DNA of 64,000 nt from NCBI GenBank assembly GCA_963764725.1, contig CAVXTM010000016.1, positions 277,598-341,597 on the forward strand. Reading direction: 5' to 3'. Below the pieces are notes generated by a model. It was not told where the DNA came from. It searched no databases and saw only the letters and a list, made by a program, of their open reading frames with translations. The stretch comes from an uncultured Gammaproteobacteria bacterium. Lineage in GTDB: Bacteria; Pseudomonadota; Gammaproteobacteria; JACCXJ01. The position numbers and the translations under genes were made by a program. Below are positions 11,842 to 45,429 of the stretch, piece after piece. Every line of letters begins with the position of its first letter. The first letter of the stretch is position 1.

Positions 11842-11850
11842 CGACAGAGA

Positions 11851-12622: not shown

Positions 12623-12638
12623 AATATACGCGTGTATA
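12623..12638. promoter_or_regulatory. Candidate ModE operator upstream of modA (ATATAC-GCGT-GTATAT palindrome)
   Basis: Perfect 6-bp inverted arms with a 4-bp spacer about 30 nt upstream of the modA start; this resembles the TATAT-type ModE box. Confidence 0.45.
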
Positions 12639-12842: not shown

Positions 12843-13976
12843 TCACTCTTTCGCTCCTTCGCCTCTTGCCGTCCCTTCCGGTTCTTGAGGGGGCGAAATG
12901 ACGAGACTCTCTTTCGGTTCGCCGTATAGTGCGCTGTCGGTGTATTTCTGGTGCAAATACTTAAACCCAACCACGAGCGCTGCACTCGCGGGCAGCGCCA
13001 GCAGCACACCGAAAAACCCGAACAACTGGCCAAAAGCGAGCAGCGCAAAAATCACCCATACCGGATGCAGCCCGATGCGGTCTCCCACCAACCAAGGTGT
13101 GACGACCATTCCTTCCAGTAGTTGCCCGAGGAAGAAAACGATCCACACCGGGACCAACCCTCCGAGACTTTGGAATTGAATCAATCCGGCGAGCGTCGCG
13201 AGCACGAACCCGACGATGGCGCCGAGATAAGGAACAAAAGTGAGCATCCCCGCCAGGATGCCGATCGGCAGGGCAAAGTTCAGACCCACGAGCCAAAGGC
13301 CCGTGACATAAAAAACGCTTTGCAACAGCATGACCGACAATTGGCCGCGTAAAAATTGTCCCAGGACTTTGTCGACATCGCGAGCCATAGAAATGGTTTC
13401 GTCTCGAGCGCGTCTTGGAATCGTCTCACCGATCTGCGCAAGCATGAGGTCCCAGTCGCGCAAGACGTAAAACAACACCACCGGCACGAGCACCAGATTG
13501 ATCACGAGTTCGGCTAATGCGAGGCCGCCGGTTGTCAAACTAGGTATCAGCTTGGCCGCGAAACTTTTGGCGGCGGGAAGATTCTCCATCAGCGCCTGTT
13601 TGATTCCCTGGATATCCAGTTCGAAATCGATTCCGAAACGATGCAACCAGGGCGTTATGTAAGAGCTTAACGCTTCCAGATATCGCGGATAGTTTTGCAT
13701 CAAGGTTGCCGCCTGCTGTTCGAACAAAGGCACCAGAATGACCAGTATCAGGATCATAAGCCCGATCAACAAGAACATGACTATCAATACACTGAGTGTG
13801 CGAGGAATTTTTTTGGCTTCCAGCCGATCCACCAGCGGGTCGCCCATGTAGGCCAGAATCGCAGCTAATAAAAACGGCGTCAGAATCGGGCTCAGGAGGT
13901 AAATAAGAACGCCAAAGAGCACGGCAAGCGCGAGCCAGAAAAAAGAACGCGCGCTTATAACTTGTTCAGAAGACAT
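12843..13976 (-). CDS. AI-2E family (PerM/YhhT-like) transporter
   Basis: 377 aa; eight predicted TM segments; LLAAILAYMGDPLVDRLE... Confidence 0.8.
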   Translation of the reverse strand: MSSEQVISARSFFWLALAVLFGVLIYLLSPILTPFLLAAILAYMGDPLVDRLEAKKIPRTLSVLIVMFLLIGLMILILVILVPLFEQQAATLMQNYPRYLEALSSYITPWLHRFGIDFELDIQGIKQALMENLPAAKSFAAKLIPSLTTGGLALAELVINLVLVPVVLFYVLRDWDLMLAQIGETIPRRARDETISMARDVDKVLGQFLRGQLSVMLLQSVFYVTGLWLVGLNFALPIGILAGMLTFVPYLGAIVGFVLATLAGLIQFQSLGGLVPVWIVFFLGQLLEGMVVTPWLVGDRIGLHPVWVIFALLAFGQLFGFFGVLLALPASAALVVGFKYLHQKYTDSALYGEPKESLVISPPQEPEGTARGEGAKE

Positions 13977-14073
13977 TAGTTAAAATCGGCGGCGTGCGGT
14001 TGATCTTCGAGCGGTAACTTTAGCGGCTGACGATTCAGAACTCAAATGAAATGGGCATGACCGCGGACGTTTT

Positions 14074-15015
<942 letters not shown>

Positions 15016-23282: not shown

Positions 23283-23831
23283 TTAGGCGGGAGCGCGGAG
23301 TAGCCGCCGGATGAGATTCTCAATTTCGTCCTTGCGGACTTGGCCGGGCTGGGTGAAGGTGATTCTCTTGTTACGATCAATGATCACCGTGTAGGGTAGC
23401 GCGCCGCTCGTATTACCGTAACTCAGAGCGACTTGGATGGCCTCCCACTCGCCGGTCAGCGTCGGGTAATTGATCCCGGCCTTGTTCGCGAATTCTTGCG
23501 TCGTGCTAAGCTCATCGATCGCGATACCCACGATCTGCAAGCCTTTGACCTTATAGTCTTCTTGAAGCGCGATGAGATCCGGGATTTCTTTTTGGCACGG
23601 AGGACACCAGGTGGCCCAAAAGTTGAGCAGCAAAACTTTTCCGTTCCACTCGCTGATGGGGCGGCTTTCGCCTCTGAAGTCCTTGAGTGAAAAATCGGGC
23701 CGCGCCTGCCCCACCAGGGTCGAAGATGAGGAGTCCGTCCGTGCGCCCAGGTGTTCGCGGAGAAGATAGCCCCCGCCTCCGGCGACGATCAGAAACAAAC
23801 AATAGAATCCAAAACGGTAAGCCGCGCTCAA
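23283..23831 (-). CDS. TlpA/DsbE-family periplasmic thiol:disulfide oxidoreductase
   Basis: WATWCPPCQKEIPDL thioredoxin motif; N-terminal membrane anchor; start overlaps the dsbD stop. Confidence 0.8.
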   Translation of the reverse strand: MSAAYRFGFYCLFLIVAGGGGYLLREHLGARTDSSSSTLVGQARPDFSLKDFRGESRPISEWNGKVLLLNFWATWCPPCQKEIPDLIALQEDYKVKGLQIVGIAIDELSTTQEFANKAGINYPTLTGEWEAIQVALSYGNTSGALPYTVIIDRNKRITFTQPGQVRKDEIENLIRRLLRAPA

Positions 23832-25678
23832 CGGCGCAACACCCGATCGAGGTGCGAGCGAAACGTCTCCGGCTCGACGAACCCGACAAGACGTTTGTTG
23901 CGAAGCTCGGTACCGTCCGGTGTGTAAAAAAGCAAGGCCGGCGGCCCGAAGACTCCGAGGCTCGCAAGCAGCTCGCGGTCCTCCTTATCATTGGCAGTCA
24001 CGTCCACTTTGATAAGCGTTAATTTGCTAAGTTGTTGACCGACAATTTGGTCGGCAAAGGTATGTTTTTCAAGCTCTTTGCACTCCACACACCAGTCCGC
24101 GTAAAGGTCTACCATCACCGGCTCGGCACTATCGCGGGCCGCGCGTAACGCCTTTTCCAAATCCGCCGCGCCTTTGACCCGTGCGAAGCTCAGCGTGAGT
24201 GGCGTCGCGGTGGATCCCTGCGCCAAGAGTGTGGCGCCCGCGAATGGACGCAACATATCGGTGGCCCCCGCGGCCGCGCCGACGATTAAGAGACCGCCGT
24301 AAGTCAAAACCAAAAACCCGGCGCCGCGCGTCAGACGGTGACCCCATGACGCGGTTTTATGGAAGAGATCGAGGGCCCCGAAGAAAATCGCCCCGGTCGT
24401 CAATAACAGCCCCCATAACAATACGGTGAACGCCGGCGGCAGCAAGCGTTCCAGCATTAAGACTGCGACTGCGAGCATCCCAAACCCGAAGAACGCCTTG
24501 ACCTGTTGCATCCAGGGCCCGGCTTTGGGCAGTAGCTGCCCGGTCGAGGTACCCACCGCTATCAGCGGCAATCCCATGCCTATGCCCAAGCAAAAGAGCG
24601 CCATCCCGCCGAGCACCGCGTCACCAGTCTTACCGATATAAATCAAGGCCCCGGCCAGAGGCGGCGCCACGCAAGGTCCGACGATCAGCGCGGAGAACAA
24701 TCCCATCGCCGCGGTTCCCTGCAAGGTTCCGCCTGCTTGCGCGTTGCTCGCCCGGGCGAGGCGCGTCTGCCAACTTGGCGGGAGTTGTAGCTCGAACCAA
24801 CCGAACATCGACAAGGCGAGGCCGACAAAGACCGCAGCAAAGAACACCAGCACCCACGGATTTTGAAACGTCGCTTGCAAGTTGTGGCCGAAGCGTCCGG
24901 CGATCACCCCCATGAGCGCGTAGGTCGCGGCCATCACCACGACGAATACGCTCGATAAAATAAATGCCTTGCGCGTAGTTACGTGCTCGCCTTGACCGGC
25001 GATGATTCCGGAGAGAATCGGGACCATGGGAAACACGCACGGTGTAAACGCGAGGAGGATCCCGAACCCCGCGAACATGGCCAGCGTCGCGAGCACGGCG
25101 CCGCTTTCGAGTTGCCGCGCCAACGCATCGTGCTCGGCAACGGGTTCGCTTGCTTCCCCGGAAGCGGCGCCGGCCGCCACGTGCGCTGGCAATCGCAGGC
25201 TGAGCGTTTTCTGCATCGGAGGGTAGCAGATCCCGTCGTCGGCGCAGCCCTGATACCTAAGGGTTAAACCGACCTCGGCCTCGCCGGGGCCTGGGCGTCT
25301 GAGCGACAGCGGGACCGTGATGGACCCGGTATACACCTCGACGGATCCGAACTCCGGATCTTCCTTGAAGTGCCCCGAGGGAAGATTAACGCGCCCGAGC
25401 CGGACGTCGCCGTCGGTCAGGTCAAATCCGAATTTATCCTTATATAGGTAATAACCGTCGGCGATGTCCCAGCGCGCGGCAAGGGTCACCGGATCTTTGA
25501 TGTCGACCGTGATCCGAAATGCTTCGTCGGGAGGTAAAAACTCCCGGCGGGCCGGTTCGCCCGCGAAACCGCGCTTAAAATCCTCGAATATATTTGCCGC
25601 CCCGCGTTGTTCGTCGGCAAACACAGGTAGCAACGTTCCAAACAACCAAACGAAGCAGACAGCGCTGACGGTCTTCAC
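23828..25678 (-). CDS. dsbD: Thiol:disulfide interchange protein DsbD
   Basis: 616 aa; signal peptide, periplasmic domain, multi-TM core with a Cys pair, and a C-terminal thioredoxin domain (WCVECK). Confidence 0.9.
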   Translation of the reverse strand: MKTVSAVCFVWLFGTLLPVFADEQRGAANIFEDFKRGFAGEPARREFLPPDEAFRITVDIKDPVTLAARWDIADGYYLYKDKFGFDLTDGDVRLGRVNLPSGHFKEDPEFGSVEVYTGSITVPLSLRRPGPGEAEVGLTLRYQGCADDGICYPPMQKTLSLRLPAHVAAGAASGEASEPVAEHDALARQLESGAVLATLAMFAGFGILLAFTPCVFPMVPILSGIIAGQGEHVTTRKAFILSSVFVVVMAATYALMGVIAGRFGHNLQATFQNPWVLVFFAAVFVGLALSMFGWFELQLPPSWQTRLARASNAQAGGTLQGTAAMGLFSALIVGPCVAPPLAGALIYIGKTGDAVLGGMALFCLGIGMGLPLIAVGTSTGQLLPKAGPWMQQVKAFFGFGMLAVAVLMLERLLPPAFTVLLWGLLLTTGAIFFGALDLFHKTASWGHRLTRGAGFLVLTYGGLLIVGAAAGATDMLRPFAGATLLAQGSTATPLTLSFARVKGAADLEKALRAARDSAEPVMVDLYADWCVECKELEKHTFADQIVGQQLSKLTLIKVDVTANDKEDRELLASLGVFGPPALLFYTPDGTELRNKRLVGFVEPETFRSHLDRVLRR

Positions 25679-31705: not shown

Positions 31706-32077
31706 CTACCCCGCCGTAGACACACGGGCGAGGGCGTCGCGGATATCCACGACGGCTGCGAGCGGATCGACCAGGCAGGCAGGTTCGTGAGCGATCCCGG
31801 CCGCCGATAATCGGTAGGCGATCGCCGGGCATGCATGGACCACGCGCACACGCGCGCCGCTCCGCCGCGCCCACTGACAAAACATAATGAGCCAATTGAG
31901 ACCCGAGTCGCGCGTGTCCGTCACATCGGCCAGATCGATGATGTAGTTCTCATGGCGGTTTCGCTCCGGCTCGCAATACTGCCAGAGCGCGAAACCGTGC
32001 GACAAATCAAAATGACCCATGGCGCTCAGCGTGACCGTCTTGCGATCCGCCGATAACGTAATGGTAAAGGCTGCCAT
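31706..32077 (-). CDS. STAS-domain protein (anti-sigma-factor-antagonist-like)
   Basis: 123 aa, MAAFTITLSADRKTVTLSAMGHFDLSHGFALWQY...; length and profile fit STAS/SpoIIAA. Confidence 0.5.
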   Translation of the reverse strand: MAAFTITLSADRKTVTLSAMGHFDLSHGFALWQYCEPERNRHENYIIDLADVTDTRDSGLNWLIMFCQWARRSGARVRVVHACPAIAYRLSAAGIAHEPACLVDPLAAVVDIRDALARVSTAG

Positions 32078-32187
32078 CGTCGTCTCCTAGCGTTTCGAGA
32101 TTAATAGCACCTGCATTTAACCCTAGGCCCGTACGCCGCGCAATATGACAAATTGCCGCGCGTCAATTCGTCGCAGCTTGAACGCCA

Positions 32188-32214
32188 TGGGGTGCGACAA
32201 TTTGTCGCATTTTA
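32188..32214. repeat. Copy 1 of the palindromic repeat GGGGTGCGACAATTTGTCGCATTT (minus orientation); two degenerate half-site copies lie at 32144-32176
   Basis: Core 17-bp palindrome TGCGACAA-T-TTGTCGCA; the same 24-mer recurs at 41024-41047 and 41158-41180. Confidence 0.6.
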
Positions 32215-32430: not shown

Positions 32431-32913
32431 TTAGGCTACCTTCTTGACTTCCCGCACCAAGGCGGCGCAGGCCTCGGCACAGTCCGCACAGCTCTGGTGC
32501 TTGGAGGCGTGTTTGCGGCATTCCTTTTCGCAGTCTGCACAGACCGCGGCACACGCGTTGGCGAACGCCTTCGTGTGTGCCGAATTACTTGCGCTCAACT
32601 GTGCCAGGGCATTGCACGCCGCGATGGTCTCTTGTACCGCGACCGCGCAGCTCGCGAGCGACGTGTCGCCGCCCTTGAAGGTGTTGATGCAGTGATTGAG
32701 GCAAGCGTGCCCCTTGGCCATGCAGGTTTCGGCGGCCATCATGAGGCCGCTGTACTGCCAGCTATGGTGATTGGCCGCCGCGAAGGCTCGCCCGGTGCCG
32801 GTCATGAGCGCGGCCGCGCCCACCGCCGTGGCGCCGGCGAGGAATTTCCTGCGCGCGGACTGACAGGGGGCGTCACCGGTCTCCGGATGGGTATTTGAAT
32901 GTAACTCGGACAT
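32431..32913 (-). CDS. Tat-exported four-helix-bundle Cys-rich (Csp1-like copper storage) protein
   Basis: Twin-arginine signal SARRKFLAGATAVGAAAL; the mature part is Cys-rich with helical C-x3-C/C-x2-C spacing (ACLNHCI, CAVAVQETIAAC, CAAVCADCEKEC, CADCAEAC). RBS AAGGAG precedes the ATG at 32911-32913. Confidence 0.6.
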   Translation of the reverse strand: MSELHSNTHPETGDAPCQSARRKFLAGATAVGAAALMTGTGRAFAAANHHSWQYSGLMMAAETCMAKGHACLNHCINTFKGGDTSLASCAVAVQETIAACNALAQLSASNSAHTKAFANACAAVCADCEKECRKHASKHQSCADCAEACAALVREVKKVA

Positions 32914-33175
32914 ATCAGCTCTCCTTTCAATATGGATGGATAAAGGGTTGCGCAGGCGTGTAACCCCAGTGTCGCTAGGGTGTTGCGGCGCTTTCGGTTG
33001 ATGGGATGGCGGAGGAGAGCTGATTTTCCTGCCCATCCCGGACGAAAGCGTCGCACCTTCTCGGTACGCGGATCGCACGGAGGCGCAAACCCGCCAGGGA
33101 TTATATCAGACCGCTAGATCTCTGGATACTATTTATCTTCTATCTTCGCCGGGCGGCGTTCTGATGGCGCTGCGC

Positions 33176-34729
33176 TCAACGAACCAACAGATCGGTACCG
33201 TACCAGCCGACGATGACGTCCCGGTAATGTTCGGCCTTCCGGGTTTGGAGTCGTTCGAGGGGATTGAAATTGTCCGTCAGAGTCACGCCTTGGGTCTCGT
33301 TCACCGCGACGATCCGGTTCTTCAGCCACGCTGCTTGCTCTGCTCGGAGTCCCGGGGAGTTGAGGTCGATGGGTCGGCCAGCCGCGAGGAAGATGAAGTC
33401 GTTGAAATCCTTGCCGGGTTCGGAAATAAAGACCGAGTGATGGGGAAACACCTGCGCGATGGTGCGCCCGACGGACGCCAGGGCGGCATTCTGGCCGCCC
33501 TCCGAAAAGGCCACGAAATTAAGAGCGAGAATGCCCTGGTCTGACAGGAGCCCGCGCAGTTGAGACAAAGTCTCGACGGTCAAGAGGTGCACCGGTTCCG
33601 ATCCTCCGGTGAAGCAATCATGGATGATCAAGTCGTAAGGGCCGGTCAAGCGGCCGATTTCATAACGTGCGTCACCCACCATGGCTTGGCCCGTGGGTTC
33701 AAACCCAAAGTATTCGGACGCGGCGCTCGCCACTGCCGGATCGATCTCCAAAGTGTCGGTCACGATCCCGTAGCGGTCACGCAGCGTCGTTGCCATATGG
33801 CCGGCGCCCTGGCCGATGAGCAAGGCCCGTGTCATGTTGGGCGCCAAGGCCGGAATCAAATGAACGATCTCCTGGTAGGTGAGCCGGTTGTCGCCACTCG
33901 ATATGCTGGCGGCGCCGATCGTCGAAGCATCCGACATGAGAAGACGAAGATCGCCTTCTCTTTGATCAATCACCCGCACCCAACCGTACAGGCTTTCCCG
34001 CTCGGAACGGATTTGAAAGGGTTCCCCGCCGGTGTAAGCACGCCCCGCGCCGATGGCTTGGGGCAGCAATCCGATCCCGATCGCGGCCAAGAGAACACTG
34101 GGCAGCACGGCGGCGGTTCGCCCCAAGCGCTTTTGCTCATAGATCGCCACGGCCACGGCCAGCGCGAGCAGAGCTATACCCAGACCGATCAGGATCTGGC
34201 GTGAGCCCACCAAGGGAAACAGAAAGAAGCCCAATACCAAGGTGCCGACAACGCTCCCGAGCGTACTGACGGCATAGATCGAGCCGGCGCTGGAACCAAC
34301 GCCTTCCAAGCGTGAGGTCGCGAGCTTGATGGCATAGGGCCCAACCATGCCTAGCATAGTCAGACTGGGCGAGAACAACACCAGCGCGCTCACGAAGGCG
34401 CCCGCTCGCAGGCCCAAAGGGTCGGTCGCCATCAAGACCGGCCGGGTTACCCACGGGATTAAGAGTGTAAACAGGGCCGCGAGTGAAATGACGAGTGAAA
34501 GTCCGGTGCGCTTCGCCCGGTCAGCCCACCGGCCGCCGGCAAAATAACCAATGGCAAGCGCGATCAACGCCACGGAAATCAGCGATGACCAGACGTAGAG
34601 GCTCACGCCGTAGAACGGGGCGATGATGCGCGTACCCAGAAGCTCGATTACCATCACCGCCGCTCCGGTCAGGAACACGGTCAGATAAAGCCCGGCACGT
34701 TCGTAGACGTGCAGTGGTTTGTAAGACAT
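33176..34729 (-). CDS. Spermidine-synthase-family protein fused to an N-terminal polytopic membrane domain
   Basis: About 200 aa with roughly seven TM helices, then the spermidine-synthase fold (LLIGQGAGHMATTL...DLIIHDCF). Confidence 0.7.
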   Translation of the reverse strand: MSYKPLHVYERAGLYLTVFLTGAAVMVIELLGTRIIAPFYGVSLYVWSSLISVALIALAIGYFAGGRWADRAKRTGLSLVISLAALFTLLIPWVTRPVLMATDPLGLRAGAFVSALVLFSPSLTMLGMVGPYAIKLATSRLEGVGSSAGSIYAVSTLGSVVGTLVLGFFLFPLVGSRQILIGLGIALLALAVAVAIYEQKRLGRTAAVLPSVLLAAIGIGLLPQAIGAGRAYTGGEPFQIRSERESLYGWVRVIDQREGDLRLLMSDASTIGAASISSGDNRLTYQEIVHLIPALAPNMTRALLIGQGAGHMATTLRDRYGIVTDTLEIDPAVASAASEYFGFEPTGQAMVGDARYEIGRLTGPYDLIIHDCFTGGSEPVHLLTVETLSQLRGLLSDQGILALNFVAFSEGGQNAALASVGRTIAQVFPHHSVFISEPGKDFNDFIFLAAGRPIDLNSPGLRAEQAAWLKNRIVAVNETQGVTLTDNFNPLERLQTRKAEHYRDVIVGWYGTDLLVR

Positions 34730-34756: not shown

Positions 34757-35731
34757 TCAGGGTTCATCGAGCACGGCAAAGGCCGGCGCATCCCGCGCGC
34801 GGCTCGGTGGTGCCACGCATCCTTCGCTACTGGCTGGCGCCGCGAGCGAGCCACCGGCTTCACCGTGCACGTCTACCCAGAAATGCGGCAAACCCATGCC
34901 CGCCAGCCATGCCGGGCCGGCAGCCTCCTTGAGCATGGCAATCGTCGAGGCACTGCCCGCGATGAGACACAGATCGCCAACTACGCTGACCGACGCCAAG
35001 TGGCGCACCGGCCAACCGGTTTTCGGGTTGAGGATATGACCGTAACGCACACCATCGAGCACGATGCAACGCTCGTAGTCACCGCTACTGGCAAGCCCGC
35101 CGTGGTGCAACGAGACCGTTTGTATGAGGGCCCCCGGACGACGGGGATGGCGTATGCCTATCCGCCACGGGTTGCCATCCGGTCGCGGCCCGATGACCTT
35201 GATGTCGCCGCCTAAATTGACGTGGCCGGATCGGGCGCCGGCCTCGTAGCATAGCGTTGCTGCCCGATCGACGGCGTATTCCTTGACGACACCGCCGAAA
35301 TCAATCTCCATGCCCGGCAGTGGAAATTCGAGAACGGGAGGTGTCCAGCGGAGCCGGTGCCACCCGACCTTGCCGAGTAGGCTTTGGATCTGCGCCCCAT
35401 CGGGCAGCGCGCCTCGATCGAAGCGCCACGCGCGACGCAATATACCAGAGCTGATGTCGAAGAGCCCATCGCTCTCACGGTAACAGGTCGCGGCGTAATT
35501 GAGCAGCCCAACAGTCTCTTGGTCTACGGAGATGCTTCCCCCACGGGATGCCACGCGATTGATCTCCGATAGAAAGCTGTCGCTGCGAAAGCGCGAATAA
35601 CGCGCTTCCAGCCGGTCGACTTCAGCGATGGCGATGCCCGCAATGCGCTCGGCTTCTGCATGGCTTGTGGCAAAGAGCTGGATCTCACAGGGAGAGCCCA
35701 TCGCCTTGAAAGCCAAGCGGTAAGACCTCAT
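34757..35731 (-). CDS. apbE: FAD:protein FMN transferase (ApbE family)
   Basis: AMGSPCEIQLFA...EINRVAS...GGVVKEYAVDRAA...SGDYERC... are ApbE motifs. The start is taken at MRSYRLAF. Confidence 0.75.
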   Translation of the reverse strand: MRSYRLAFKAMGSPCEIQLFATSHAEAERIAGIAIAEVDRLEARYSRFRSDSFLSEINRVASRGGSISVDQETVGLLNYAATCYRESDGLFDISSGILRRAWRFDRGALPDGAQIQSLLGKVGWHRLRWTPPVLEFPLPGMEIDFGGVVKEYAVDRAATLCYEAGARSGHVNLGGDIKVIGPRPDGNPWRIGIRHPRRPGALIQTVSLHHGGLASSGDYERCIVLDGVRYGHILNPKTGWPVRHLASVSVVGDLCLIAGSASTIAMLKEAAGPAWLAGMGLPHFWVDVHGEAGGSLAAPASSEGCVAPPSRARDAPAFAVLDEP

Positions 35732-35896
35732 GCCGTTCATGTTCAAAACCACGTTCGCGGTCGATGTAGCCCGGGTCGAACGCAGCCCCGCCCCGCCGCG
35801 GTGAGTGCCCGCGACTAGTCCCGGTCGCTCAAGCGGTGGCGGAACGTAGCTACGCCACATATTCTCAGGCACATGACGCACGCTAAACAAGGCCCA

Positions 35897-36901
35897 TCAA
35901 AACGTCAGGCTGAAGCTCACGAACAGTGAGCCGTCACGTTCGAGCTGGAACCCGTTGAAGTCGTCCTCCACGGGTTGCAGCCACTCGACGCTCAAACGGT
36001 TGTCCTTAAGCCCGGCGATCGGAATCTCGGCGCTGAGCCCGAAGCCCACGTCCCAGAACTGCCCGCCGTAGTTCTGCGGGAAGTCCACCGGGCTCAGTTC
36101 CGAGTGCACGTCGTTGAACTCGCCCGTGATCTCCCCTTGCGTCGTGTAAACGCCGCGCACCGAGGCGGAGAGCCAGTCGAACAGGCCGATGCTTCCCCAG
36201 GCGGTGGCCTGGAACTGATTGCCCAACGCATAGCCCGACTCGTTCGCGTTCTCGAGGCGATCGATGCCGCTCACTTGCCCCCCCCACGACCAGCGCCCCC
36301 ACGCGCCCGTGTAGGTGAGGTTCGGCAGCAGATCCCAGGTGCCGCTGCCGAGCTGCATGCCATAGTGATAAAAGCCTTGATCCGTTTGATGGCTGCGTCT
36401 GAGCTGCTCGTCGACGGAGCCGGTCGGTGCGCTCACGCCCAGAGCCAGGTGCAGGTGATGTCCGGGCACATCCAACAGTTTGAAGAGCGCGTACATGGAG
36501 GTGTCACCGACGCCGCCCGTGGCTTCGGAGTGGAGCACATGGTGCTGTTCACTGCTGTCGAGCTGAGCGCCTTCGAGGGCCTGCATCGACATCTCCATGT
36601 CCACGAACTGCGGCATGAGCATCAGGTTCAGCCAGTCGGTCGGGGCGTACATGATGTCGATCATGTGCATGTTCATGGTGTGGTCGACCGGCTTCACTTT
36701 GCACGGCACCGAGCCACAGCCATTGCTGGTGATGACGGCATCGCCGACGGCGTCCGAACCGCGCAGGATGTTGCCGTCCTGACTGTGGTACATGTAGCGG
36801 TAGTCGACCATGAAGTCGCCGGCCTCGGGCAGCATGTGGTCGAGCATGACACCCGCCGGCGCGTGGCCGTGGGCGTGCGACGTGGCTATCGTGGGCGTCA
36901 T
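35897..36901 (-). CDS. Outer-membrane beta-barrel protein with a His/Met-rich N-terminal region (possibly CopB/PcoB-like or MetA-pathway porin-like)
   Basis: Ends ...SLFVSFSLTF (C-terminal aromatic). N-terminal SHAHGHAPAGVMLDHM... and Met clusters MNMHMIDIMY, MLMPQFVDMEMSMQ. Its start ATGA overlaps the stop of the upstream ORF. Confidence 0.5.
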   Translation of the reverse strand: MTPTIATSHAHGHAPAGVMLDHMLPEAGDFMVDYRYMYHSQDGNILRGSDAVGDAVITSNGCGSVPCKVKPVDHTMNMHMIDIMYAPTDWLNLMLMPQFVDMEMSMQALEGAQLDSSEQHHVLHSEATGGVGDTSMYALFKLLDVPGHHLHLALGVSAPTGSVDEQLRRSHQTDQGFYHYGMQLGSGTWDLLPNLTYTGAWGRWSWGGQVSGIDRLENANESGYALGNQFQATAWGSIGLFDWLSASVRGVYTTQGEITGEFNDVHSELSPVDFPQNYGGQFWDVGFGLSAEIPIAGLKDNRLSVEWLQPVEDDFNGFQLERDGSLFVSFSLTF

Positions 36902-37195
36902 GGTGCGCCGCCGGCAGCGGACAAGGCTGCGTCGAGGCTGACATTCAACGCCGCATTGACCTGATAGTAGTTGAAATCGGCATAGTCGCCCTCACCACCT
37001 CCGCCGAGCTTGAGCCCGCCCTCATGGGTGTAATACTCGAAACCGGCCTCGAGACTGATCCCCCTAGCGAATTCCTTGCTCACGATCAATCCGCCGCTCA
37101 AGGCCCCATAGCCCGACAGGCGGTGGTCGCTGGAGAAGTTGGCCGGAAGTTTTTTCGGATCGAACGGGATGATTGTGACGTCTCCCGTCAGGTCA

Positions 37196-38460
37196 TCAAA
37201 AATGAACTGTTTGGTATGCTTGCCTGGAGATGAGAAACGGCTGATAGAAATCGGCGGCGTCTTGCGAGTAATAGCGAATCCAGGGCATCACGGTCCAACC
37301 CCGGCCTAGCGGTTGACCCCAGCTCGACTCGAGGGTGTGGGCATCGATCCCCCAATCATCGGAGTAGAAGCGGTATCCGAGATGCAGGGCCGCATTCAAT
37401 GGTTCGACATACTGCACATAGCGCGCGTCCCAAGTCCATTGGTTACGCGTATCGGGCCGCTGTTCCAGGAGGGCCTGAACTTGCCCAAAAAACCCGCCGG
37501 GAGGTGCCAAGAACTGTTGCTCGGGATCGATGAACGCGACCTCCATCACCTTGTAGGGGTTCGCCAGATATCCTGTGCTGCGGGTATAACCGAGGGTGGT
37601 CTCGATGAGCGAGTCATTGGTCAGGACCTGCGTCAGACCAAAACGCGTAGCCCAATCCTGTCGATTGCCCTCCAGGGTGTCGATGCTTAAATCCGTCGTG
37701 TTTGGCACCGGCGTCTTTTCAATCTGGTCCGTGTATGCGGAGGTATCGATGTAGGGAAGAGCGTCGTGATCGAGTATGGCCTCGGTGTCGCTGGCGGTGT
37801 AACTCAAGCCCAGGTTCAAGGTGGTGCGCTTCTGATTGAGGTCCCAGCGCCCGCCCAGGCTGCCCCATCGCGATTCATAGTCGTTCTCCAGGGAGATGCC
37901 ACCGCCCACATCCAGCGCCGCCTCGTTCCACTCGTAGCTCAGCCCGAAGTCCCCCTGCTTGCGCGCCTCGGGTGAGGCGAAGGAGATCGTATCCACCAAT
38001 TGCCCGTTTTTTTGAAAGAGCTGGTTACCATCCTCGTCGAAGAGTACTTCGAGCGGGTTGAATTGAGAATCGAAAAACAGATCACCATTGATGAAAGGCG
38101 TCGCCCCGGAGACCCCATCCGGGGCTGTGGGACAATTCCCCCCCGAACAATTAAAGCCACCGGAAACAAGTCCCTGCGGTGCGGTGGCGATCGGCGTGGC
38201 CCCGGACCAGGTGTCCTGGACGTAGTTGGCAAAGAACTTCAGCCGATCGAAGAGCGTGAGGCTAGCGCTGCCATGGAGGCTGTCCACCAGGATAGGATCG
38301 AACGCGCTCTTCACGCCGAAGAGGTTACGTTCACTCTCTTGGTAGCGGCCATACTGAAAGTTGAAATCGTCACCCTCGGCGGCATGAGCAGGTGAGGGAG
38401 TCAGGCCGGGCAAGGCCAGAGCGGCGGCCGTCAGCGCCCGCGAGGATGCGCTTGCCTGCG
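37196..38460 (-). CDS. DUF3570-type outer-membrane protein
   Basis: TTG start, signal peptide TQASASSRALTAAALALPGLTPSPAHA; ends YQTVHF followed by tandem stops TGATGA. Conserved partner of DUF4266, tlpA and apbE. Confidence 0.6.
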
Positions 38461-38546
38461 TCAATGATTGCGGTCCGGTGGCCGACCGCCGCCCGAAGCG
38501 ACGCGGTAAAAGTAGCCCTGCGAGGTGCCGAAATGCGCCGCGCAGG

Positions 38547-38771
38547 CTAGTAACAGCCACACCCGCCGCCGGCGGTGGACCCACCGGCCAATGCGGCCTC
38601 GCGGCTCATGTAGGTGTGCACGCGTAAGGCGCGCAACGCGGGGTTGGGTTCCAAGGCCATGTGCGGCTTGGCGAGATTGCCGCGTTCCCACGGGGCTACC
38701 GGCGCGCAGCCCGGTAGCCCGATAGCCAGCCCAAGTAGAAGCGCCGTCAGCACCCAGTTAGATTTTTTCAT
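38547..38771 (-). CDS. DUF4266-type small lipoprotein
   Basis: MKKSNWVLTALLLGLAIGLPGCAPVAPWERGNLAKPHMALEPNP...GGGCGCY; lipobox plus the characteristic C-terminal GGGCGC. Confidence 0.7.
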   Translation of the reverse strand: MKKSNWVLTALLLGLAIGLPGCAPVAPWERGNLAKPHMALEPNPALRALRVHTYMSREAALAGGSTAGGGCGCY

Positions 38772-38801: not shown

Positions 38802-39296
38802 CTATCCGCCCTCGGGACGCTCCGCCAACAACTGTTCCACCAGCCCACGGAGCTGCTCAGCCTCTCCGCGCCGAAAGCCTAGGTGCACGTGGCGAATGAT
38901 ACCCTGGCGGTCCACCAGATAGGACGACGGCATCGCTTGGACGCCGAAGTCTCGGGGACACTGCCCGTCCGCATCGACAGCGACGGTGAAGCTGGCCGGG
39001 TGTTTTTCAAGAAAGGCCTTCGCATCGTCGGGTTTCTCATCCAAGTTGATCCCCAGAACGTGCAAACCCTGTCCCCGCAACTCGCTGTCCAGATCGTTCA
39101 AGAACGGAAAGGACTGTGCGCAGGGGGAACACCAGGAGGCCCAAAAATCGACATAAACAACCTTGCCGCGCAGTTGCCGCATGTCATAGCGTTGTCCATC
39201 GCCGACCGGGGTCAATGAACAGTTAGGCGCCGCCTGACCAGCTTCGAAACTATAGACGTTCGAATAAACCGCGAGCGCCAGTGCGGTGAGAAGCAC
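38802..39296 (-). CDS. TlpA-family thioredoxin / thiol-disulfide oxidoreductase
   Basis: VDFWASWCSPCAQSFPFL. The GTG start is preceded in-frame by TAG and an 18-codon ATG-initiated extension (MMAKDYDFLPLRISATRS). Confidence 0.75.
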   Translation of the reverse strand: MLLTALALAVYSNVYSFEAGQAAPNCSLTPVGDGQRYDMRQLRGKVVYVDFWASWCSPCAQSFPFLNDLDSELRGQGLHVLGINLDEKPDDAKAFLEKHPASFTVAVDADGQCPRDFGVQAMPSSYLVDRQGIIRHVHLGFRRGEAEQLRGLVEQLLAERPEGG

Positions 39297-39989
39297 CTAT
39301 GAGCGGGTTGCACTAATTCGCAACGGCAGGAAGTCATAGTCCTTAGCCATCATCTTCGGATCCAAGTAGCAGCCCGCGACCAAGCGCCGCCAAGCGCCGA
39401 GCTCAGCGAATCACCGGCTTACTGATTCTGCGTCTGGTAATTGACGTCCCGGTGTGAACCCCCGTAGCGGTTTCGCAATGGTAATTCGAGCGTGTAATTA
39501 TTTACGCCGCCGCGGATTTATCGACGTTATACGATGTACGCCCCGACGCCACTGTTATTGTAGCACCTTTGAGGACTATACGCTGCGTTTCCACCGATGG
39601 GATCCGTGCTGGTCGTGGAATGCCGCCCTTGTCGCGTCAACCTGCACCAGTGACGAGCCCGCAGTGTCGTCCTTCACGCGTGATCGTGAAGACGGACAGA
39701 GTTCGTGGAGCACGTGACGGGTAGATCATCGGTCGCGCCCGCCGCGGAAAGGAGCGATCCGATCTTTGAATCGCCAGACGCGATACGGCGTGTGCCTACC
39801 GCGACCAGCAACGATGCGTGCGAATGCGCTCTTAAAGAAAGTATTTTTCATACATATTCATAATAGTCTCCTTCAGTCGTTAATCGGGAAAAACGGTGAC
39901 CTGGGTATACTAGAGAAGCACTGACGGTCGGGTACGGCGGGAAATCGCCGGCTCGAGGAGAGCGGAGCCTGCCCGTTACGTCCCACTCG

Positions 39990-40560
39990 CTACTCACGTC
40001 GCGGTGCTCGCACGGCGCGATGTCCTATCTCCTCCAGTTTCATGGCGGCCAATACACGCACCGTCTCGTCGGTGTCAGCCAGCGCGTCTTGAAGTAGTGC
40101 GGCGCTCTCCGCATCTGTGCCGGCAGCTGTCCACCGCCATCAGCCTCACCGAAGCGTCGCTATCGCCCAGGGCACTGCGCAGCACATTCATGGCCTCGGT
40201 CTCCGCCATCTTTCGCCAAGGCGTAAACGCCCTGCGCCCGCACGCTCCCGTCCTCGTCCGTCAGCGCGGTCCGAAACACCGCTTGTACCGCAGGATCGTT
40301 GCGTTTGCTGCTCGCAGCCAGGCTGCCCAGCGCCTGCATCCGCGCTTCGGATCATCGGCCGTGCTCAGGTCCATGAGCATATTGAATCGTCATGCTCTGC
40401 CGCCGCGGGATCTTTACTCGTCGCTTGCTGCGGGGCCGCCCGCGAACATTCCGCACCGGTGTCTCCACAACGACCCCATTGCTACTACTGCTACCGTCGG
40501 GAGGTCCGGGCGGCTCCTAAAAGCCACACGTCCGAAGGCAGGGATCGGTCGCAGACTCCG
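39990..40560 (-). pseudogene. HEAT-repeat (PBS-lyase-like) protein gene decayed by frameshifts and stops
   Basis: Minus-strand translation across shifting frames gives DPAVQAVFRTALTDEDGSVRAQGVYALAKDGGD..., EAMNVLRSALGDSDASVRLMAVDS|AGTDAESAALLQDALADTDETVRVLAAMKLEEIGHRAV. Confidence 0.4.
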
Positions 40561-41023
40561 CTCTCTCGGGGGCATAGCGCACTATGCTGCGCGGCGTCAC
40601 GCCCAAAAAGACACTCGAGTGCACGCGTGAGGCGTCATGCGCTGGCAGGAGAGCCGTGACCACGCCTTCGGGCGTCACTACGTCATGGAAGCGGGTACCC
40701 GTTTTCTGCCGAATTCGCCGAGCACCTCTGTCCACGGGGCCCGCGTGACATTCAAGCTCATCAGTGCCGCGATGGAGCTCGATTTCCACCGATGCGGAAG
40801 GCCCTGCTTTCAAAAGCGCTCGAGACGGCGTGTCAGGCCCTGCGATAACATGGCTGTTCCACAGCATCATTCCCGGCACCAACGAAAGCAGCCCGACCTC
40901 CGCCAGCCCGTCTCTTACGCCGCGTTCGAGTACTGCTCATCGAATAAACACCCTGCGTGGCCATGTCTGCTGTCGTTCTAATTCTCCGACCGTTCGGAGT
41001 CTATGATTCGTAGCCGCGCTTGT

Positions 41024-41047
41024 AAATGCGACAAATTGTCGCACCCC
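41024..41047. repeat. Copy 2 of the palindromic repeat AAATGCGACAAATTGTCGCACCCC (plus orientation)
   Basis: Same 24-mer as at 32188-32214; forms an inverted pair with 41158-41180. Confidence 0.6.
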
Positions 41048-41157
41048 CACACTCAACATCGAGACCGGGGAGCGGCAAGTCACCGGTACGCTATCCTGCT
41101 TTTGCCTTTCGTTAATCCCGTAGTTTATATAATAGAACTCTGGTCATGGAATCAGTT

Positions 41158-41180
41158 CCGGGGTGCGACAATTTGTCACA
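41158..41180. repeat. Copy 3 of the palindromic repeat (minus orientation), CCGGGGTGCGACAATTTGTCACA
   Basis: Inverted relative to copy 2, about 110 bp away, giving a MITE-like unit 41024-41180. Confidence 0.55.
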
Positions 41181-41336
41181 TTCACACGCGATGCTCAGTG
41201 AGATAGTCTTCTTAGCAGGGAACAGCTAGTGATGCAGGGTACGACCAGTTGTCTCTGGCGTGCTTTTTAGTTGGTAGAAACCAGTTATATCTGTTCTGTG
41301 AATCCATAAGTCAATACAGGAACCATTTATGCCAAG

Positions 41337-42120
41337 CTTAAACATAAGAAGACTGACGATGTGCTCGCTGACGACCTTGCTGTGCACCGCAGGGCCGAAT
41401 GTCTTTGCCCACACCGGCGTTCAGAATGCGGCTGACCGCAGGGACGACGACCTATAACGGTTTCACGATAACGCACGGCTGTGGCGGCCATGATGAGACG
41501 AAGCCTCCGTTGAAGGTGTTGGGACAGTCGGCGGTGTTTCCGTTCGGAGTCGCCGTGTGGACGAACCTCAACCCACCGGTGAAATCATACCGACGGGTGG
41601 CCAGGGTATCGTCAGCGAGGACAGATGATTTTATCACTCTCAATGTCGGCGGTATTCAGGATAACGATCCCTTCGCAAAAACAGAGGAAGAGACGGATGA
41701 TCTTGAAAACGTGCGTGCGCTCAATTGGAAGAATGGCAAACTAGCGACCAACCTGGTCGGTATACCCGAGTGGCGGGCATCGGCGCCGACCATTCTGGAT
41801 AATTGCGTGTCGGCATTGCACGTGCGTATCGCGGTTGCCAACTGGTGCAAAAAGAACGCAAACGAAAAGAACGACCATGCTAACAACCGGGCCGACTGGT
41901 GGTTCACGGGACCGGACCAGACCGGGAGCACGCAGTTCGTCGATCCCGATCTGGTTCAGGAGGACTTCTGGACGACATTGACCGTTAACAACCCGGGCAA
42001 CCCGGACGCCCCTGCATGCACCGGGGAGACTCGCGAGGTTGCGGTCCAGCCGACGGGTGCGGACATCGATACCTACCTGCCATACAAGCCGTTCACCAAG
42101 AATCCGGGACCGTATTGATC
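41337..42120 (+). CDS. Exported protein with a mature N-terminal His and a frameshift just after the signal peptide; low GC
   Basis: ATG at 41337 gives MPSLNIRRLTMCSLTTLLCTAGPNVFA|HTGVQNAADR and then stops. The body continues in the +1 frame as ...TTTYNGFTITHGCGGHDETKPPLKVLGQSAVFPFGVAVW... to 42120. GC is about 52-55%. Confidence 0.45.
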
Positions 42121-42212
42121 CCGAGATCGTAGGAGAGTAGGAAAGCGACCGGCAGCCGAAGCCGCCTTCTAACTCGGTGGCCGGTCGTGGTGTAGCCCTT
42201 GTCCCAGGACCC

Positions 42213-42246
42213 TCGCTCGCGAGGGTCCTGGGACTTCCGTCAGTCA
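42213..42246. terminator. Perfect 15-bp-stem hairpin GTCCCAGGACCCTCGC-tcgc-GAGGGTCCTGGGAC between the exported-protein gene and glnE
   Basis: Exact inverted repeat; weak U-tract, so it is a structural or terminator candidate only. Confidence 0.4.
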
Positions 42247-42540
42247 GGTGACGGCGCCCGCGGTCCGCAGTAGAGAGTCCAGGCACCCTGCCATCTCGGT
42301 GGCCGTGCGGGCGAAGGTCTTGACCCTGACAATAATGGTAGCCATCGCCCCGCAGCTCGCCGATTCGGATAAACACGCGGGAATCGCGCACGGCGCGTGC
42401 GCTACCGAAACGGGCCGACGACTGCCGGTTGCGAGCCGATCTTCTGTCCTGGTTGCAGATCCTGCGAATAGAGTACGTTGCAACCGCTGGGCGACGCGGG
42501 GTTAATGGTAGCCGCAAAGCGCAAACGGTAAACTTGGCCG

Positions 42541-45429
42541 ATGACCGCGCCTTCTCACGCCGCACCCGCGTTGACTCCGGAATTGGCTTCGGAGGCGAAG
42601 CGGTATTGGGACCAATTCGCTGAGGCAATCCCAAGGTCACCGCTAGGCACCGTCGTTGAGGAGGCACACCGGCAGAACATCATCCGAGTGTGCGTGTGCA
42701 GTCCGTTCGCCGCGCACTATTTCGCGAAGGATCCAAGCCGCCTCACGCAGCTTCTCGAGAGCGGCGATCTCGACCGCGGTTTCGGCGAACAAGAATATCC
42801 CGAACGGATCAAGCGTGCTGTCGCCGGCGCGCCGGACCAGGCGGCGCTCATGCGCGCTCTTCGCCAGGCACGTTACCGCGAATTCGTGCGCATCACCTGG
42901 CGCGATATCACCGCAGCCGCCGATCTCGATGAAACGATGGGAGATCTCTCGCGCTTTGCCGATGCCGCACTCGATGGTGCGCTCGGCTGGCTTTACCGAA
43001 AACAAGTGGAAACCTTTGGCGCCCCGCGGGATATTGATGAGACGGCCCAGTCGCTGGTCGTGATCGCGATGGGCAAGCTCGGCGCCCATGAGCTCAATTT
43101 TTCCTCGGACGTCGATTTCATCCTTGCTTATCCGCGCGCCGGGGAGTCGCATGGCGGAGCACGCTCGATATCCAACCAGGAATTCTTCAACCGCCTGGGC
43201 CAAGCCTTGATCAAAGTGTTGTCGGAAGTTACCGAGGATGGATTCGTGTTTCGTGCGGACATGCGCCTGCGGCCGTTTGGCGACAGCGGGCCGCTGGTGT
43301 TGAATTTTGACGCCATGGAGGCGTACTACGTGACTCATGCGCGCGATTGGGAGCGCTACGCCATGATCAAAGCCCGCATCGCCGCGGGGGATAAGCCGGC
43401 CGGGGAGAATCTGCTGGAGCGGCTGAAACCGTTTGTCTATCGCCGCTATCTCGATTTCGGCGCGATCGAGGCCTTACGCGACATGAAACGATTAATCGAT
43501 AGCGAGGTGACGCGCAAGGGGCTTGCGGAGAATATTAAGCTTGGGCGAGGAGGGATCCGCGAGATCGAGTTCATCGGGCAGACCTTTCAACTAATCCGCG
43601 GCGGACACCGGCCGGCGCTGCGCGACCGCCGCATTCTGGCCGTTCTCGAGTCCCTCGGGAACCTAAACTATCTGCCCGCGCCCGCCGTTGCCGAGTTGAC
43701 CGAAGCTTACCGCTTTTTGCGCCAGACGGAACATCGCTTGCAGCAAGTCGAGGACCAGCAGACTCATGTCTTGCCGAGAGGGGAGATAACCCGGCAGCGC
43801 GTGGCCTTGGGAATGGGGTTTAACGATTGGCCGAGCTTTCATGCGGCGCTCACACGGCACCGGGAGCGCGTTCAAACCCATTTCGATGCGCTCTTGGTCG
43901 GGCCGCACGATCCCGCCGCCAACGGTCCGCCGCTCATGCTGGCGCCGCAGCCGTGGCAGGGGATGGCCGACACCGCATCTCTATTACGCTGGTTGGAAGG
44001 CGCGGGGTTCAGCGATCCGCCCTCGATACTCGCAAGCATCGAGAAGTTGAGTAAAAGCGGGGGCGTGAGGCGGCTCAGCAATACCGATCAAATGCGGCTG
44101 GACCGGGTCCTGCCGAAGCTGCTTGAGGCCATAACGCGGGTAGCCGAACAGCCAACGGTGGCTGAACGCCTATTGACCATCGTCGAGGCGATAGCGCAAC
44201 GCAGCGTCTATCTGGTTTTGCTCGATGAGCATCCCGGCGCGCTCGAGCAACTGGTGCGCCTGTGCGCGGCCAGCCCCTGGATCGCGAATCGTATCGCCCG
44301 CCAACCGCTGCTGCTCGATGAGCTCATCGATCCGCGCACACTCTATGCGCCGCCGCGGGTGAGCGAGTTGAAGCGGGATCTCGCCGAGCAGTTAGCGCAT
44401 TTGGCGCGCGGGGATCTCGAGCAAGCCATGGAGATTCTGCGGCATTTCAAGCATGCGCAGGTCCTGCGCGTCGCGGCGGCCGACGTGGCCGGAGTGCTGC
44501 CCGTGCGCAAGGTCAGTGATCACCTAACCGGGATCGCCGAAACCGTGTTGCAGGCGGCCTTGGAAATCGCGCGGGACACCATGGCGCAACGCTATGGTGA
44601 ACCGATGTGTGGAGACGGCGCGGCGCGGCGCATCGCCGGTTTTGCGATCATCGCCTACGGTAAGCTCGGCGGCATTGAGCTCGGTTACGGATCCGACCTG
44701 GATCTCGTCTTCTTACACGATAGCTGCGGCGATGAGCAGCAGCCTGGCGGGCCGGTGCATCACCAAGAATTCTTCACCCGCCTGGGGCAGAGGATCATTC
44801 ACATGATAACCACGGCCACGGCTGCCGGAAAAGCATATGAGATCGATACCCGGTTGCGGCCGAGCGGGTCGGCGGGGTTATTGGTTAGCAGCCTCGATGC
44901 GTATCGCGAGTACGAACAAGCGCATGCGTGGACCTGGGAGCATCAAGCGCTCGTACGGGCGCGCGCAATCGCGGGAGATCCGAATACCGTACGCGAATTC
45001 GTACACCTACGGCGTGCCATCCTCGGCCGGCCTCGCGATGAGGACCGGCTCCGGCACGATGTGCGGGAGATGCGCGAGCGGATGCGCCGGGAGCTGTCCC
45101 GCGATGCGCCCGGGGACTTCGATATCAAGCACGGGCAGGGTGGTGTCACCGAGATCGAATTTGTGGTGCAATATGCGGTTTTACGCTGGTCTGCTCAGCA
45201 CGCAGAGCTTGTGGATTTCACCGACAATCGCCGTTTGCTGGAACTCTTATCGCGCCTGCGGCTGTTATCGGACGAGGACTGCCAGGCTTTGCAAGAGGCT
45301 TATTTCGCTTACCGTGCCAAGCTTCACGCCTTGGCGTTGCAGGAGCGGCCGGCCTTGGCCGACAATGCGGAATTCGGCGCCCAGCGTGCAAGGGTCGGTG
45401 AGGCGTGGCGCCGGGTGATCGGGGCATGA
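42541..45429 (+). CDS. glnE: Bifunctional glutamine synthetase adenylyltransferase / adenylyl-removing enzyme
   Basis: 962 aa; two nucleotidyltransferase domains (GKLGAHELNFSSDVDFIL and GKLGGIELGYGSDLDLVFLH). Confidence 0.95.
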   Translation: MTAPSHAAPALTPELASEAKRYWDQFAEAIPRSPLGTVVEEAHRQNIIRVCVCSPFAAHYFAKDPSRLTQLLESGDLDRGFGEQEYPERIKRAVAGAPDQAALMRALRQARYREFVRITWRDITAAADLDETMGDLSRFADAALDGALGWLYRKQVETFGAPRDIDETAQSLVVIAMGKLGAHELNFSSDVDFILAYPRAGESHGGARSISNQEFFNRLGQALIKVLSEVTEDGFVFRADMRLRPFGDSGPLVLNFDAMEAYYVTHARDWERYAMIKARIAAGDKPAGENLLERLKPFVYRRYLDFGAIEALRDMKRLIDSEVTRKGLAENIKLGRGGIREIEFIGQTFQLIRGGHRPALRDRRILAVLESLGNLNYLPAPAVAELTEAYRFLRQTEHRLQQVEDQQTHVLPRGEITRQRVALGMGFNDWPSFHAALTRHRERVQTHFDALLVGPHDPAANGPPLMLAPQPWQGMADTASLLRWLEGAGFSDPPSILASIEKLSKSGGVRRLSNTDQMRLDRVLPKLLEAITRVAEQPTVAERLLTIVEAIAQRSVYLVLLDEHPGALEQLVRLCAASPWIANRIARQPLLLDELIDPRTLYAPPRVSELKRDLAEQLAHLARGDLEQAMEILRHFKHAQVLRVAAADVAGVLPVRKVSDHLTGIAETVLQAALEIARDTMAQRYGEPMCGDGAARRIAGFAIIAYGKLGGIELGYGSDLDLVFLHDSCGDEQQPGGPVHHQEFFTRLGQRIIHMITTATAAGKAYEIDTRLRPSGSAGLLVSSLDAYREYEQAHAWTWEHQALVRARAIAGDPNTVREFVHLRRAILGRPRDEDRLRHDVREMRERMRRELSRDAPGDFDIKHGQGGVTEIEFVVQYAVLRWSAQHAELVDFTDNRRLLELLSRLRLLSDEDCQALQEAYFAYRAKLHALALQERPALADNAEFGAQRARVGEAWRRVIGA

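Follow-up and report, generated by a model that had tools for sequence, protein, structure and literature searches.

YcnI of Bacillus subtilis, a DUF1775 protein (PF07987; PDB entries 7me6 and 7mek), binds one Cu(II) ion with its N-terminal amine, the side chain of His27 and Glu50, with Trp137 placed above the ion; in many proteobacterial DUF1775 proteins, the histidine and the tryptophan are retained but the glutamate is missing (PMC8424229). In the DUF3570 flavinylation system, ApbE attaches flavin mononucleotide (FMN) to DUF3570 at two [S/T]GA[S/T] sites (Meheust et al. 2021, PMC8238504), DUF4266 has a CXC motif, and DsbD is thought to be the electron source. This system was described without an assigned function or electron acceptor, and some of its clusters contain the iron transporter VIT1 (PMC8238504). 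Here we describe a broken gene at positions 41329 to 42118 of a stretch of 64,000 nucleotides (the window) from an uncultured gammaproteobacterium. With a probability of about 60%, we read it as the inactivated gene of a Sec-exported, periplasmic, copper-binding protein, HIS1, that has a YcnI-type fold and is accessory to a DUF3570 flavinylation system.

Like YcnI and the DUF1775 protein 3esm, HIS1 proteins are exported, with a predicted beta-sandwich and a conserved histidine that signal-peptide cleavage exposes as the first mature residue, and their tryptophan-rich DWWF motif is a candidate counterpart of Trp137 of YcnI. They differ in being ~100 residues larger (~230 to 290 mature residues as against ~130), in having four invariant cysteines and no C-terminal membrane helix, and in an invariant histidine of a T-H-G-C motif that probably takes the place of Glu50, which would give a two-histidine rather than a mono-histidine brace. 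Furthermore, HIS1 genes lie in a DUF3570/ApbE cluster and not beside copCD/ycnJ or ycnK, and close family members have no detectable sequence similarity to YcnI. With the histidine-brace proteins (lytic polysaccharide monooxygenases [LPMOs], X325, CopC and the PCuAC domain of PmoF), some of which are found in methanotrophs, HIS1 shares an N-terminal and a second histidine as likely ligands and an extracytoplasmic location. As for the DUF3570 system, the window and most related loci have all four core genes (DUF3570, DUF4266, thioredoxin and ApbE), two SGAT flavinylation motifs (WSGATP and VSGATP) occur in the DUF3570 proteins of both the window and the related locus L001, and DsbD is encoded in the window at a distance of 13 kb. 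The published description (PMC8238504), however, includes neither HIS1 nor three further proteins of the window: u160 (an exported protein of 160 amino acids), a HEAT_2-repeat protein and the methanotroph copper-storage protein Csp1. Elsewhere, the core is paired with a JDVT-CTERM protein (bioRxiv 10.1101/2023.06.07.544157) or with VIT1. A bona fide Csp1 (PDB 5fjd) ends the gene string of the HIS1 cluster; it is a cysteine-lined four-helix bundle for Cu(I), unrelated to HIS1 in fold and sequence, and thus a possible partner but not a relative.

The HIS1 family and its two histidines

HIS1 is an unnamed and unannotated, methanotroph-centred variant of the YcnI-type proteins with N-terminal histidine. 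A search with the protein joined across the frame break returned 175 homologues, all labelled 'hypothetical' and none with a Pfam domain, and a family profile run against 1.84 billion representative proteins gave 215 clusters at E <= 0.001; with just 215 clusters, the family is rare. The repaired protein had no match in Pfam or NCBIfam, neither it nor the homologue from Methyloglobulus matched the Pfam model of DUF1775 even at E <= 10, and a profile search of the PDB sequences with an alignment of 39 family members (A1) found no match either. Nearly all hosts are Methylococcales and USC-gamma relatives; the genera include Methyloglobulus, Crenothrix, Methylobacter, Methylomicrobium, Methylomagnum, Methylotetracoccus, Methylovulum, Methylomonas and Methylocucumis. 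In some methanotrophs, modules of HIS1, u160, HEAT_2 or DUF3570 occur two or three times in the genome, in tandem or close together (L010 in Methylotetracoccus oryzae, L018 in Methylomagnum, and L013, L026, L027, L033 and L035).

The original prediction of a signal peptide followed by histidine at mature position 1 was borne out. The open reading frame (ORF) at 41329-41457 encodes a Sec-type signal peptide with an AxA end, then a histidine, and virtually all full-length homologues have this histidine at mature position 1. His28, as it is numbered here, is invariant in A1 as well as in a larger alignment of 101 sequences (A2) and stands right after an AxA-type or small-x-small site, and the homologous signal peptides conserve a positive n-region, a hydrophobic core and a small-x-small site immediately before it. 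Also invariant, or nearly so, are T29, V31, H50 and C52 (both of the T-H-G-C motif), Q67, W78, the NNRADWWF motif and four cysteines; the invariant tryptophans are W78 and W192. An HGCGGHDE motif had also been proposed as part of a metal centre; H50, G51 and C52 are indeed conserved, but the GGHDE part, including its second histidine, is not.

The family has an invariant histidine, not a glutamate, 21 to 22 residues past His1, and this residue, His50, is a candidate second copper ligand. In 232 aligned domains, both histidines were present in 226, both were lost in 4 and only one was lost in 2 (Fisher p = 2e-7, a statistic that ignores phylogeny). In six proteins, a u160-type domain is fused ahead of a HIS1-type domain (P0145, P0154, P0196, P0217, P0239 and P0244), so that the latter is internal and has no free N terminus; His1 was absent from all six, and in five of them Q, D or R stands in place of the second histidine. 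Such a joint loss would be expected of a single metal site built from the free amine, His1 and His50. The fusion proteins also tie the u160 and HIS1 families together functionally.

A structure of the intact homologue P0003 was predicted with AlphaFold from the 101-sequence alignment (predicted local distance difference test [pLDDT] score, 90.6; predicted template modelling score, 0.86) and has a YcnI-type beta-sandwich fold. Foldseek matched this model to 3esm, a DUF1775 protein of Nocardia farcinica with an uncharacterised role, with a template modelling (TM) score of 0.68, and every other match was near 0.3. The only clear structural relatives, YcnI and 3esm, both belong to the YcnI/DUF1775 family, and no match to a well-known non-metal family appeared. 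In addition, 2 of 146 remote relatives passed the Pfam model PF07987, one of them (P0253) with 34.8 bits. The invariant histidine, just past the second strand, probably sits roughly where YcnI has Glu50. A two-histidine copper site is favoured because the histidines covary, csp1 lies in the same operon region and the family is nearly confined to methanotrophs. These three observations agree with the original assignment of copper as the metal, and we infer that intact HIS1 members bind copper in a histidine brace made up of the N-terminal amine, the side chain of His1 and the histidine of the T-H-G-C motif.

Several observations weigh against this assignment. Sequence methods give no link of close HIS1 members to YcnI, and Pfam has no match for them. 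When the HIS1 profile was aligned with YcnI alone by hhalign, the probability was 0.3%; with a small YcnI alignment it was 1.6%, and the C terminus of HIS1 was paired with the N terminus of YcnI, which is meaningless. A narrow hidden Markov model of YcnI found nothing significant in the HIS1 family, and a whole-database search with YcnI gave only Bacillus proteins, at least 76% identical, among the best 120 matches listed, and no useful DUF1775 profile. In the genomic context, csp1 adjoins the cluster in only 3 related lineages (it closes the leftward string of genes in the window and adjoins the cluster in L015 and L016), and CopC, CopD, PCuAC and Sco genes are not nearby, unlike the situation with many DUF1775 genes. 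Among the neighbours in 49 loci, no CopC/CopD/YcnJ or PCuAC gene recurred. Classical genes of copper homeostasis or of methanobactin, contexts named as examples in the original prediction, are not among the neighbours, which form a DUF3570/ApbE flavinylation cluster. In the literature library searched, no paper connects DUF3570 with copper. Finally, many invariant polar residues (R167, N172, D183, R188, D190, D206, N222 and D248) and the four invariant cysteines would be left unexplained by a simple chaperone role.

Probable inactivation of the gene in the window

The gene is split into two ORFs (Table 1). Indels were mapped against the intact homologue L001 (81.5% nucleotide identity), and the removal of 4 extra nucleotides gave an ORF of 261 codons without a stop codon. 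The first extra base is 8 codons past the predicted cleavage site (GCGGCTGACCGC as against GCGGCTGAG-GC in the DNA alignment with L001) and parts the signal peptide and His1 from the remainder of the protein. The indels at 41573-41574 and 41623 compensate each other, which keeps ORF B open; over the ~17 codons that they enclose, the frame is wrong, and NPPVKSYRRVARVSSARTD replaces the family's TGEIIPTGGQGIVSED, which is still legible in the other frame. A single +1 frameshift had originally been proposed, and the break at ~41434 that joins ORF A to ORF B is real, but there are three frame-disrupting indels and not one. Likewise, the proposed start at 41337 lies 8 nucleotides inside the ORF, and the low guanine-plus-cytosine content that had been ascribed to the gene is only modestly low (0.57 compared with 0.604 for the window; upstream intergenic region, 0.477). 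More than 100 homologues are full length (258 to 320 amino acids), each a single ORF that spans 100% of the repaired query. Since the homologues are unbroken, the frame break is peculiar to the window sequence. With the signal peptide and His1 detached by the +1 insertion, no functional exported protein is possible in this genome.

Table 1. Positions of the broken HIS1 gene, its parts and the surrounding features in the window
Feature	Position	Strand	Details
DsbD, full length (DsbD_N, DsbD_TM and thioredoxin domains)	23828..25678	-	13 kb from cluster
Csp1 copper-storage protein, twin-arginine signal, last of leftward gene string	32431..33078	-	PDB 5fjd, E = 8.5e-19; TIGR04401, 119.6 bits (cut-off 100)
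Fused MFS/spermidine-synthase membrane protein, intact	33176..34729	-	NCBIfam NF037959, 201 bits
ApbE FAD:protein FMN transferase, intact	34757..35740	-	
DUF3570 (ApbE flavinylation substrate), split	35897..38584	-	Single-base insertions near 37204, 36905 and 36885
DUF4266 small lipoprotein, C-terminal GGCGC motif, intact	38547..38771	-	93% identical to L001 protein; PF14086 on homologues
TlpA/ResA-like periplasmic thioredoxin, WCSPC motif, intact	38802..39296	-	
u160 pseudogene, second N-terminal-His exported protein	39422..39860	-	Frame changes, nonsense, His-to-Asp
HEAT_2-repeat protein gene, divergent from HIS1, degraded	40014..40909	-	tblastn matches in two frames
Inverted repeat, left arm	41012..41047	.	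Perfect palindrome TGCGACAAATTGTCGCA at 41027-41043, abutting -35-like TTTACA of leftward promoter
Inverted repeat, right arm	41160..41195	.	Palindrome TGCGACAATTTGTCACA at 41164-41180, then TTCACA, 17 nt, TAGTCT facing HIS1
HIS1, probable pseudogene; exported protein with N-terminal His and YcnI-like fold	41329..42118	+	Repaired length 261 aa
ORF A (42 aa)	41329..41457	+	MPSLNIRRLTMCSLTTLLCTAGPNVFA, then HTGVQNAA, then out of frame to TAA
Signal peptide coding region, 27 codons, V-F-A end	41329..41409	+	Conserved n-region/core/cleavage pattern in homologues
ORF B (239 aa)	41399..42118	+	+1 frame relative to ORF A
His28 codon, predicted first mature residue	41410..41412	+	Invariant in alignments A1 and A2
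Frameshift 1, one extra base	41434..41437	+	GCGGCTGACCGCAGGG vs GCGGCTGAG-GCAGGG in L001 alignment
His50-Gly51-Cys52 codons (T-H-G-C motif)	41474..41482	+	H50 and C52 invariant; G51 at least 90% conserved
Frameshift 2, two extra bases	41573..41574	+	CTCAACCCACCGG vs CTCAGT--ACCGG in L001
Frameshift 3, one extra base, restores frame lost at 41573	41623	+	GAGGACAGATGAT vs GAGGAC-GATGAT in L001
Perfect hairpin, 16-nt arms, 2 nt between	42201..42234	+	83 nt past stop codon; no T-tract after

The damage extends to the neighbours. The u160 copy has at least 4 frame changes and, relative to a u160 alignment (A3), aspartate in place of the N-terminal histidine; in addition, it carries two in-frame nonsense substitutions (AYIV*RR*IRGGVNNYTLE as against AYNVLVDKTASGANNYTLE in P0274). 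The HEAT_2 copy is fragmented across frames (~40% identity by tblastn, no ORF of more than 121 amino acids) and is intact in L001 and L005. The genes for ApbE, the fused MFS/spermidine synthase, DUF4266, thioredoxin, Csp1 and GlnE are intact; with DUF3570 split, the DUF3570 system is not present as a set of intact, expressible genes in this genome. Decay at this site is also seen in the USC-gamma 'Taylor' genome (Chromatiales bacterium USCg_Taylor; PMC5408097), which is 92% identical to the window at the DNA level over 4.2 kb around glnE: a frameshifted 3' third of HIS1 lies directly upstream of glnE (L044, 2057-2418), and the remainder of the cluster is absent from the syntenic site. Since u160, HEAT_2, DUF3570 and HIS1 are all degraded, HIS1 is probably a pseudogene. 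Moreover, the stops in u160 arise from substitutions and cannot be indel artefacts; therefore, we read the breaks in HIS1 as genuine and recent. The locus is most likely an inactivated copy, a recent pseudogene of the HIS1 gene, within a decaying cluster.

The pseudogene reading has to be weighed against errors of assembly or consensus, for example from mixed strains in the metagenome, in which case the gene would be intact and functional in the organism. All four extra bases of HIS1 are insertions relative to L001, as are the three indels of DUF3570, one of which lies in a T5 run, and consensus errors could account for such a pattern. Once repaired, the ORF is free of stop codons and otherwise pristine: its product retains all 33 residues that are invariant in the 39-sequence alignment and is 77% identical to the L001 protein, with a ratio of nonsynonymous to synonymous substitution rates (dN/dS) of 0.38. 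The cluster also diverges fast (67 to 82% nucleotide identity compared with 92 to 94% for glnE), and strain mixtures there could blur the consensus. However, indel errors cannot produce the two nonsense substitutions or the His-to-Asp change in u160, the flanking genes for ApbE, the MFS/spermidine synthase, DUF4266, thioredoxin and GlnE (962 amino acids) have no frame breaks, the alignment at glnE runs over 2521 nucleotides with 0 gaps, and the same site has decayed independently in one metagenome-assembled genome of USC-gamma. Given that every indel is an insertion and that repair leaves an otherwise flawless gene, we leave some room for consensus error, but consider it unlikely.

Neighbouring genes and a possible role of HIS1

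In the first three contexts, HIS1 was found beside the genes for the HEAT_2 protein, u160, a TlpA/ResA-like thioredoxin, DUF4266, DUF3570 and ApbE. A scan of one genome per species added 44 more loci, and neighbours were counted over 44 loci flanked by 3 kb or more. u160 lay within 2.5 kb of HIS1 in 37 of the 44, followed in frequency by DUF4266 (34/44), DUF3570 (33/44), thioredoxin (31/44), HEAT_2 (30/44), ApbE (23/44) and the fused MFS/spermidine synthase (18/44). The arrangement extends to distant members: the remote relative P0258 (~20% identical) has HEAT_2, a u160-sized gene and a thioredoxin downstream, and the fusion protein P0145 is followed by a thioredoxin and DUF4266; the contigs of P0253 and P0255 were too short for gene context. 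We take HIS1 to be a dedicated accessory of one type of DUF3570 system, in which ApbE and FMN-bearing DUF3570 are combined with DsbD, a TlpA-like thioredoxin and the CXC lipoprotein DUF4266; u160 and the HEAT_2 protein also belong to the accessory set.

u160 is itself a protein with an N-terminal histidine in the mature form (66 of 70 sequences). Two further histidines are conserved in 65 and 64 of 73 sequences, two cysteines are invariant, and the family has no match in Pfam or NCBIfam. Its predicted structure (pLDDT, 80.5) is a generic jelly-roll sandwich.

Some features of the cluster vary between loci. Long DUF3570 proteins (840 to 990 amino acids) have a histidine-rich stretch in mid-protein, a possible metal-binding feature, which reads HDSHAHGHAHG in L001 (gene at 2456-5035, minus strand) and HAHGH in the window (36860-36900). 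A membrane-anchored protein of 213 amino acids without a family match (p213) is encoded between u160 and DUF4266 in L004 (9882-10523) and in 7 other loci. In L001, ~5.4 kb between HIS1 and glnE (8778-14281), absent from the window (42119-42540) and from L005, encode a 49-amino-acid ORF, a spondin-domain protein, Uma2, two unknown proteins and a sigma-54 activator; a spondin-domain protein is also encoded beside u160 in L015 and L016. Near DsbD, the window has a second thioredoxin-like match at ~23511-23711.

Methane oxidisers need copper for particulate methane monooxygenase, and for most of them its uptake and handling are only partly known, least of all in organisms without methanobactin and in the uncultured USC-gamma group; a 2026 USC-gamma genome paper does not mention copper. 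Against this background, two unannotated families with an N-terminal histidine, one of them with the copper fold of YcnI, are tied to a DUF3570 system and, in some lineages, to Csp1. Signal-peptide cleavage would expose the histidine as residue 1 of HIS1, and HIS1 and u160 might then capture periplasmic Cu(II). Electrons for the reduction of Cu(II) to Cu(I) could come from the flavin/thiol relay of DsbD, thioredoxin, DUF4266 and FMN, and Cu(I) could be passed on to storage in Csp1 and to copper enzymes, for example particulate methane monooxygenase. This scheme presumes the ligand set, the course of the electrons and the link to Csp1. We put forward only tentatively that the DUF3570 system has its missing clients in HIS1 and u160, and that these are part of an unrecognised pathway of copper capture and reduction in methane oxidisers, including USC-gamma, whose uncultured members oxidise atmospheric methane. 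If this is true, the DUF3570 system gains a function and the histidine-brace proteins gain a new branch. The joint decay of HIS1, u160, HEAT_2 and DUF3570 in the window independently suggests that the four work together.

Alternatively, intact HIS1 proteins could be copper-dependent redox enzymes, LPMO-like oxidases or peroxygenases that receive electrons from the flavinylated DUF3570 relay. A domain twice the size of YcnI with many invariant polar and aromatic residues, including NNRADWWF, and an obligate linkage to an electron-transfer system would suit an enzyme, and two-histidine braces are found in oxygen-activating enzymes (PMC10952591). The closest structures, however, are non-enzymatic or uncharacterised, and the cluster has no candidate substrate gene, which makes an enzymatic role rather improbable. 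It is doubtful, too, that HIS1 is not a copper protein at all but a thiol-disulfide client, a beta-sandwich with a structural part in the DUF3570 system, or a protein for another metal such as iron, nickel or zinc. Four invariant cysteines next to a TlpA-like thioredoxin and a CXC lipoprotein would be in line with a thiol client, VIT1 in some DUF3570 clusters (PMC8238504) would be in line with iron, and most loci have no adjacent classical copper genes; on the other side, an N-terminal histidine that covaries with a second histidine is the signature of a copper brace, the closest match in structure binds Cu(II), Csp1 is adjacent and the hosts are methanotrophs.

Frame overlap, hairpin and upstream palindromes

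A programmed +1 ribosomal frameshift that serves regulation is conceivable in that ORF A and ORF B overlap by 59 nucleotides (41399-41457), anywhere within which a +1 shift would join them, but it is effectively refuted by the absence of the break from all of the more than 100 homologues, the lack of a slippery or RF2-like motif at the site, the second indel pair downstream and the broken neighbouring genes. Within the gene, a 15-nucleotide inverted repeat (93% complementary; 41360-41374 and 41609-41623) stretches from the signal-peptide region to the third indel and is probably due to chance.

Downstream of the gene, the perfect hairpin that had been noted as 15 bp at 42213-42246 is real, but its arms have 16 nucleotides and it lies 12 nucleotides further left (Table 1). 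The hairpin region (182 nucleotides) has a z-score of -4.8. A repeated element of the repetitive extragenic palindromic (REP) type was rejected, as the hairpin is unique within the window. An Rfam search of 40850-42600 gave no family at the gathering score and only sub-threshold microRNA matches to hairpins.

Upstream, the inverted repeat pair of the original prediction is present at 41012-41047 and 41160-41195. The arms have 36 nucleotides and are 86% complementary, and each contains the palindrome TGCGACAAWTTGTCGCA directly outside the -35-like hexamer of one of two divergent promoters. Palindrome pairs occupy the same intergenic position in L001 to L016; therefore, the idea that the repeats are the ends of a small transposable element was rejected. 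A palindrome-bearing stretch of 28 nucleotides matches L005 by 100% in reverse orientation, whereas the coding DNA there is only ~68% identical. Further copies are found upstream of csp1 in L016 and between the DUF4266 and thioredoxin operons in L011. Taken together, the repeats look like a conserved operator pair for a putative regulator. The half-sites GACAA/TTGTC resemble the CusR palindrome of Escherichia coli, AAAATGACAAnnTTGTCATTTT, which lies between divergent operons (bioRxiv 10.1101/2023.09.26.559466), but the spacing differs by one base and the likeness is thus only a lead. One more copy of the palindrome, TGCGACAATTTGTCGCA, is present in the window at 32193-32209, with a degenerate copy near 32143-32159; it lies ~115 nucleotides upstream of a small STAS-domain gene (31706..32077, minus strand) and suggests a wider regulon.

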